Positions 43,111-43,320 of a DNA stretch of 64,000 bases are shown here, piece by piece. How positions within the stretch are numbered: the first letter of the stretch is position 1; each line of letters begins with the position of its first letter. The stretch lies in the NCBI RefSeq assembly GCF_048403405.1, contig NZ_CP183129.1; one strand, written 5' to 3'. The notes under the pieces are model-generated. The model saw only the letters and a program-made list of their open reading frames with translations, had not been told where the DNA came from and made no database searches. This stretch comes from Escherichia coli (GTDB lineage: Bacteria > Pseudomonadota > Gammaproteobacteria > Enterobacterales > Enterobacteriaceae). The position numbers and the translations under genes were made by a program.

Positions 43111-43320
43111 CTGCTCAGGACATTATCGGCAGGGTACGCACTGCTAGTCTGTAAACTGAACCGACTGGGGCGCAGTATGTGGCATCTTGTCGTGCTGTTG
43201 GAGGAGCTGTGCAAACGTGGTATTAACTTTCGTGCTCTGGCCCAATCTATATTTCCCCAACAATGGGGGGACGAATGCTGTAAAAGTAAAACAATCTGCG
43301 ATCTCAAAGTTATTGTGTGA
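43111..43320 (+). pseudogene. pinH: Serine recombinase (Pin/Hin/resolvase-type invertase) fragment
   Basis: Reading frame without start codon encodes ..[40 protein letters not shown].., matching the conserved resolvase core (LVVxKLDRLGRS...L...L...GV.F.SL); the N-terminal catalytic Ser region and C-terminal HTH are absent. Confidence 0.55.

Follow-up and report, generated by a model that had tools for sequence, protein, structure and literature searches.

A degraded DNA invertase gene fragment (pinH) between ypjCB and ypjA of Escherichia coli and its most likely origin from an ssrA-integrated P2-like prophage

Between the genes ypjCB and ypjA of Escherichia coli lies a short frame without a start codon, whose translation recalls the core of a serine recombinase. 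Its presence raises the question of which recombinase gene it descends from, how it reached this site and whether any activity is left to it. The locus was analyzed in a stretch of 64,000 nucleotides (the window), which represents E. coli core chromosome, 20 kb of it being 100% identical to strains MS 69-1 and TUM1226. The islet is bordered on one side by ileY, the gene of tRNA-Ile(CAU) (40437..40512, + strand), and on the other by ssrA (tmRNA; 48394..48756, - strand), whose 3' end faces the islet, with smpB next to it; in the window strain, ssrA carries no prophage. Within the islet, ypjCB (41269..42723, +) encodes 484 aa with DUF5507 and DUF5508, and ypjA/ehaD (43659..48233, +), an adhesin-like autotransporter gene of 1524 aa, is intact in the window strain. 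The spacer between the two genes measures 935 bp.

The GC content was 30-40% over window positions ~37500-43000, as compared to ~50% on either side, and this stretch includes an alpha-amylase-like gene, ileY and ypjCB, suggesting that DNA of foreign origin is not confined to the ypjCB-ypjA islet. The ypjCB gene is unbroken here but split into ypjC and ypjB in K-12, and it is split or frameshifted in other strains too. The best 120 matches of the YpjCB protein were all from E. coli/Shigella, with 76-100% amino acid identity, and the gene is unusually polymorphic within E. coli. In some strains, the ileY side of ypjCB holds an integrase gene with Arm-DNA-bind_3 and Phage_integrase (L016, 589-1905). 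In others (L014, 9226-10120), an AlpA-plus-integrase module is found ~4 kb downstream of a 39-aa ORF that PGAP calls in the ypjA leader (WP_001120794.1; 43475-43594), with no ypjA called in between. The occurrence of integrase modules at one end in some strains and at the other end in others indicates that both islet borders are active integration sites in the population.

Homology, extent and identity of the fragment

The start-less frame is open from 43081 to 43320 (+) and closes with a TGA at 43318-43320. A Pfam comparison revealed a match to PF00239 (Resolvase) with an E-value of 8.1e-10 and a score of 39.4 bits (gathering cut-off, 23.3 bits), covering only profile positions 48-102 of 145. 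The best match among solved structures was the Gin DNA invertase (PDB 3UJ3/4M6F), over residues 44-101 and with E=1.8e-12, while the match to gamma-delta resolvase was far weaker (E=9.2e-4). The tblastn search of the frame against phage genomes gave 130 records; among the matches listed, every annotated one was a DNA invertase, and the best identities were 74.5% for Salmonella phage SEN8, 73.1% for Fels-2 and 71.2% for Klebsiella P2-like phages. At the nucleotide level, window positions 43093-43233 shared as much as 83.7% identity with the invertase genes of P2-like phages of E. coli. When the frame was used in a protein search, only 23 short ORFs were obtained, all of them from E. coli. Judged by these sequence comparisons, the relic is a piece of a DNA invertase gene of the Gin/Pin/Hin/Cin type and stands nearer to invertases than to resolvases. 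An earlier, sequence-only reading of this DNA had placed a serine-recombinase fragment between an "orphan ORF", here ypjCB, and the autotransporter gene, and the PF00239, Gin and phage invertase matches confirm it. The peptide that it quoted is real and is read in the same start-less frame. A fragment is indeed present in the span that it gave, 43111-43320, but the homology really occupies ~43092-43270 and begins 19 nt earlier.

Alignment with full-length invertases revealed that the invertase-derived DNA proper (43092..43270, +) corresponds to codons ~41-102 of a Gin/Pin/Hin-type DNA invertase of ~185 aa. The full-length relatives have the N-terminus MLIGYVRVSTNDQ; in the relic the catalytic Ser near the N-terminus (YVRVST, Ser9/10) is missing, since homology begins only at codon ~41 and the DNA upstream is that of IS3. 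At the other end, homology stops at codon ~102 (window 43270), and the E-helix and the C-terminal helix-turn-helix (HTH) are missing. The same alignment therefore upholds the sequence-only reading in its statement that neither the N-terminal catalytic Ser region nor the HTH is present. In the frame open from 43081, no start codon covers the homologous part. In Gin/Hin/Pin/Cin, a Fis-dependent enhancer lies within the 5' part of the gene, and the relic has lost the first 120 nt of that part.

The retained part is degenerate. The motifs of a full-length invertase run RPGL...GD.LVVWKLDRLGRS...RGINFRSL..PMG, and the relic reads SGL...RGINFRAL, with the conserved residues GD changed to GY, W to C (VVW to VVC) and KLD to KLN. 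In the active-site Arg motif DRLGRS, the RLGRS is kept, but each of the seven alleles described below has Asn in place of the Asp (KLNRLGRS), a change of no consequence because the rest of the enzyme is gone. In addition, 4 nt are deleted near 43241/43242, which changes the reading frame inside the invertase homology. The true continuation of the invertase is found in another frame as ..IYISPTMGG, to be compared with ..IDTSTPMGR of full-length genes. As a result of this deletion, the tail QSIFPQQWGDECCKSKTICDLKVIV of the previously quoted peptide is not invertase in the frame in which it was read, and the last 50 nt of the open frame (43271-43320) belong to another sequence block, the ypjA leader. 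In a functional sense, the relic cannot be counted as a member of the enzyme family, as it has no nucleophile, no DNA-binding domain, no unbroken frame and no crossover sites.

In RefSeq, the K-12 MG1655 genome carries the pseudogene pinH (b2648) at NC_000913.3 2783065-2783304, which corresponds by alignment to window 43081-43320. The spacers of K-12 and the window were 98% identical over 916 aligned columns, with no internal gaps. On this alignment, the window relic is the orthologue of pinH, and it is thus already catalogued and not new. The RefSeq/PGAP label, here and in other strains, is 'recombinase family protein; incomplete; missing N-terminus and C-terminus'. The named pseudogene, the adjoining IS3 scrap and the loss of crossover sites had all been missed by the sequence-only reading. 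The region is present in approximately 3,000 of 5,426 complete E. coli genomes, with 3,002 matching at least 80% of a 931-nt query and 3,053 matching the IS3-containing part. In the literature search, the name pinH was found only in gene lists. A 'PinH' in an O157 proteome proved not to be the pinH relic, being a separate, intact invertase of prophage CP-933H.

Joints with IS3 and with the ypjA block

The 5' side of the fragment adjoins an IS3 remnant of 92 bp (42998..43089, +), composed of the left terminal repeat and a piece of orfB. The left terminal repeat (18 bp), at 42998-43015, reads TGAGCTTACCCAGCAATA in the window and TGATCTTACCCAGCAATA in the K-12 allele, the latter being exact IS3. 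Window positions 43003-43089 correspond to IS3 orfB nt ~531-618 (88 nt), with 88.6% identity and one further 1-nt deletion. An internal IS3 deletion of ~510-525 bp joins the terminal repeat to orfB at a short imperfect repeat, TTACCC.G..A, and the joint falls somewhere within the overlap 43003-43015. The remnant passes into invertase codon ~41 at 43090-43092, where the sequence is …CCGTGGC/AG…GGACTGAAAAAACTG (the slash marks the joint). Both partners are internal fragments, which identifies this joint as the product of an illegitimate deletion rather than as a transposition end.

On the 3' side, invertase homology ends at 43270 and homology to the ypjA block begins at 43271 (…ATGGGGGG/ACGAATGCTG…). 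The ypjA block, which comprises a leader (43271..43658, +) and ypjA, measures 4,973 bp (43271-48243) and was found at two loci. The second copy lies next to minE, in the ymgI/ymgJ-ycgI spacer, where L024 2307-2665 is 89% identical to window 43271-43629, and L024 2665-3019 is 96% identical to window 47889-48243. The homology between the two copies did not extend past either end of the block. The minE-side copy is internally deleted, lacking the equivalent of window 43630-47888, and is represented by the ymgJ region and the beta-barrel pseudogene ycgI. The ypjA block was found to be bounded neither by terminal repeats nor by target duplications.

Seven divergent alleles of the region, from the window, K-12, O157:H7 and four others, were aligned, with identities down to 91%. 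The 184 bp directly upstream of the ypjA start (43475-43658) were nearly invariant among them, with 0.7-1.2% divergence, compared to a mean pairwise divergence of 5.6-8.9% for the islet in the same seven E. coli alleles. Positions 43492-43604 had zero variable sites, and the conserved stretch reaches ~43730. The 39-aa ORF of this leader was seen in >11,000 assembly blocks. The fold of the conserved leader RNA was no better than that of shuffled sequence (z=+1.0). The segment 43475-43658 may serve ypjA as promoter or leader, or its uniformity may be maintained by gene conversion with the second copy. A search of a genome collection with the first 700 aa of YpjA gave a single 1.1-kb contig, assigned to a 'Collinsella sp.' MAG (L013, JAIJJM010000899.1), and no Escherichia outgroup; the contig encodes a YpjA N-terminus with 85% identity and almost certainly stems from E. 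coli DNA contaminating the MAG bin.

Crossover sites and the element of origin

Inverted crossover sites were searched for in the flanks, as the sequence-only reading had proposed, and none survives there. Matches to gix/hix-type half-sites numbered 25, against 19.3 +/- 4.6 expected, with zero between 39.9 and 44.9 kb, and the core palindrome of crossover sites was found nowhere within the islet. The 26-bp site of the closest phage gave 0 matches at up to 3 mismatches, and the inverted repeats in 40.5-44.2 kb were only short, AT-rich and at chance level. A live relative has perfect 31-nt inverted sites, one of which lies 68 nt upstream of the invertase start, and that position is deleted in the relic.

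These results bear on the reading that the relic belonged to a domesticated phase-variation switch, which flipped a promoter segment of ypjA as Hin does for fljBA, and not to a phage tail-fibre invertase. The fragment does lie 389 bp upstream of an adhesin-type autotransporter gene and in the same orientation, and adhesins are often phase-variable. Such a switch is nevertheless very improbable here, given the zero inverted crossover sites in the islet. The adjacency to ypjA is moreover secondary, since the ypjA block starts exactly at the invertase breakpoint and its minE-locus copy is without invertase sequence. The closest sequences, with up to 84% nucleotide identity, are the tail-fibre invertases carried by P2-like phages, and the geometry of the locus suits an ssrA prophage. 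An origin in a Tn3/gamma-delta-type resolvase gene of a transposon or plasmid, arriving together with IS3, would agree with the shared family PF00239 and with the physical joint to an IS remnant, but is extremely improbable: the Gin match was ~9 orders of magnitude better than that of gamma-delta resolvase, all close DNA and protein matches were phage DNA invertases, and IS3 has no resolvase, its joint inside orfB being an illegitimate deletion and not that of a composite element.

The preferred source, a P2-like prophage once integrated in ssrA, was examined through the gene order of the closest phages. The 3' side of ssrA is a classical integration site. A core of the ssrA 3' end, 43-60 nt long and 98-100% identical, was found in the P2-like phages SEN8, RE-2010, Cartapus, 500465-1, Kp4865-2 and CP019275, of which SEN8, Cartapus, 500465-1, Kp4865-2 and CP019275 were also among the phages giving the closest invertase matches. 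In SEN8, the genes are ordered as tail fibres, invertase (+), FI, FII, E, T, U, D, core (ssrA sense on the - strand) and integrase, and the invertase gene points toward the core, with 7.07 kb between its stop codon and the core. An integrated phage with this gene order would thus have its tail genes on the flank adjoining ssrA. The relic of the window (+) likewise runs toward ssrA (-), from which its end is separated by 5.12 kb, made up of the ypjA block plus 150 bp.

Because the phages of its closest relatives share the ssrA core, and its side and orientation fit, the relic is most likely the fossil of a former ssrA-integrated Fels-2/SEN8-like (Felsduovirus) prophage. This case is circumstantial, since the relic is accompanied neither by an att remnant nor by any other phage gene, and the orientation match alone had a prior probability of 50%. 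A repeat of the ssrA or ileY 3' end was searched for in 40513-48393, and none was found bar one chance 10-mer. When the spacer was compared in six frames with the invertase neighborhoods of three phages, the invertase piece alone was found and no second phage gene. An ileY-integrating phage was rejected as the source, as the ileY 3' end matched phage-borne tRNA genes only and gave no attP-like match. The view of the sequence-only reading that the fragment marks a past mobile-element event gained support from both sides of this analysis, namely the IS3 remnant at the 5' end and the nearest relatives, which are invertases of ssrA-integrating P2-like phages.

Decay of the fragment and comparison with known systems

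Both joints and the 4-nt deletion were common to seven of the seven alleles, and on this alignment the fragment appears to have been truncated already in the common ancestor of the sampled lineages. Extra lesions consisted of a 1-nt deletion in L009 and an in-frame stop in L011. The variable sites were distributed 7:10:7 over the codon positions of the seven alleles, and the mean pairwise divergence of the fragment was 6.0%, compared to 5.6-6.1% in the adjacent non-coding DNA. The lack of codon-position bias, the extra frameshift and stop and the flank-like divergence together indicate neutral decay. Independent drift is confirmed by the L011 allele, in which more of the ancestral residues survive (GDVLVVWKLNRLGRSMRHL).

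Retention of the region in the ~3,000 genomes mentioned above might be taken to mean that the fragment serves in some other way, either as a 47-aa micro-protein or as a spacer with a regulatory or H-NS-nucleating role at ypjA or ypjCB. An ATG-started ORF of 47 aa (43177-43320; MWHLVVLLEELCKRGINF...) is indeed intact in six of the seven divergent alleles, and some pipelines call ORFs of 45-133 aa. Yet the fragment diverges as its non-coding neighbors do, with no third-position excess, and in one allele codon 12 of the 47-aa ORF is a stop. On the + strand of the fragment no site resembled a promoter, the numbers of promoter-like and of terminator-like sites lay within ~1 SD of shuffled controls, and no Rfam family was matched at the locus. 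The conserved and presumably regulatory part upstream of ypjA begins at ~43470, outside the fragment. The E-helix, which makes the recombinase dimer in the structures of Gin and gamma-delta resolvase, is absent from the retained piece. A function of this kind is thus scarcely credible. It is likewise very doubtful that the micro-protein interferes with resident prophage invertases, or that the scrap insulates or silences between ypjCB and ypjA; were this true, the 47-aa product would keep part of the invertase core.

An apparent allele with an intact N-terminus was also considered. Cluster P0121 is a 116-aa ORF with 11 metagenome/Logan members, in which the invertase N-terminus MLIGYVRVSTNDQ runs into decayed pinH. 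It was rejected as an ancestral allele and regarded as a chimera of short-read assembly, because its joint occurs in 0 of 5,426 complete genomes, whose best matches cover only nt 241-900 of L027, and because its contigs (L025, L026, L027) bear differing phage-like 5' parts, one of which is the end of a Mu-like tail module. In support of the same conclusion, all contigs switch at one 31-nt stretch that is identical in pinH and live invertase genes, and the 5' 41 codons are undecayed, in contrast to the decayed remainder. The practical warning is that this 31-nt identity leads short-read metagenome assemblers to false 'N-terminally intact' invertase genes at this locus.

Taken together, pinH is very probably an inert remnant that cannot bind, cut or invert DNA, its ~180 bp coming from the central part of the catalytic domain in the invertase gene of a P2-like ssrA prophage. 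In the live phage, the enzyme inverts a tail-fibre segment between two inverted sites of ~26-31 bp, one of them just upstream of the start codon. We infer the order and age of events in the relic as follows. A first cut would have removed everything upstream of codon ~41, including the Ser, the crossover site, the tail-fibre genes and other phage genes, and put an IS3 copy in their place. This copy would afterwards have been reduced to 92 bp, and the rest of the prophage genome would have been lost in the IS3-associated deletion. By a second cut, everything downstream of codon ~102, including the E-helix, the HTH and the tail genes as far as the junction with ssrA, would have been replaced by the 4,973-bp ypjA block. 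Both joints and the 4-nt frameshift would be older than the divergence of the sampled E. coli lineages, with neutral drift since then. In K-12, where the relic lies 22 kb from ssrA and CP4-57 occupies ssrA, this prophage would have entered later and displaced the relic from ssrA. As a named K-12 pseudogene without plausible activity, pinH is of little significance. It has some small value as a dated fossil, by which the ileY-ssrA interval may be seen as a layered graveyard of insertions at the ssrA hot spot, with an earlier P2-like prophage overwritten by the ypjA block and, in K-12, CP4-57 later added on top.

Compared to the invertases of Fels-2 (STM2702), SEN8 (gp26) and the E. coli T22 P2-like phage (gp38), the relic shares 71-75% amino acid identity over residues ~41-102. 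It differs from these phage invertases and from Gin, Pin, Hin and Cin in that one third of the gene remains, frameshifted and without the invertible tail-fibre segment. The adjoining insertion sequence is similarly reduced, as 92 bp are left of an IS3 whose full length is roughly 1.26 kb, the right two thirds being gone together with the transposase. The closest counterpart is K-12 pinH, which resembles the window relic in being flanked by ypjA and ypjB/ypjC and in having the same open frame, IS3 scrap and joints, with few point differences, such as K versus E in 'CKRG/CERG'. The two differ in their surroundings: K-12 pinH adjoins the cryptic prophage CP4-57, whereas in the window ssrA is without CP4-57 and the relic lies 5.1 kb from it.
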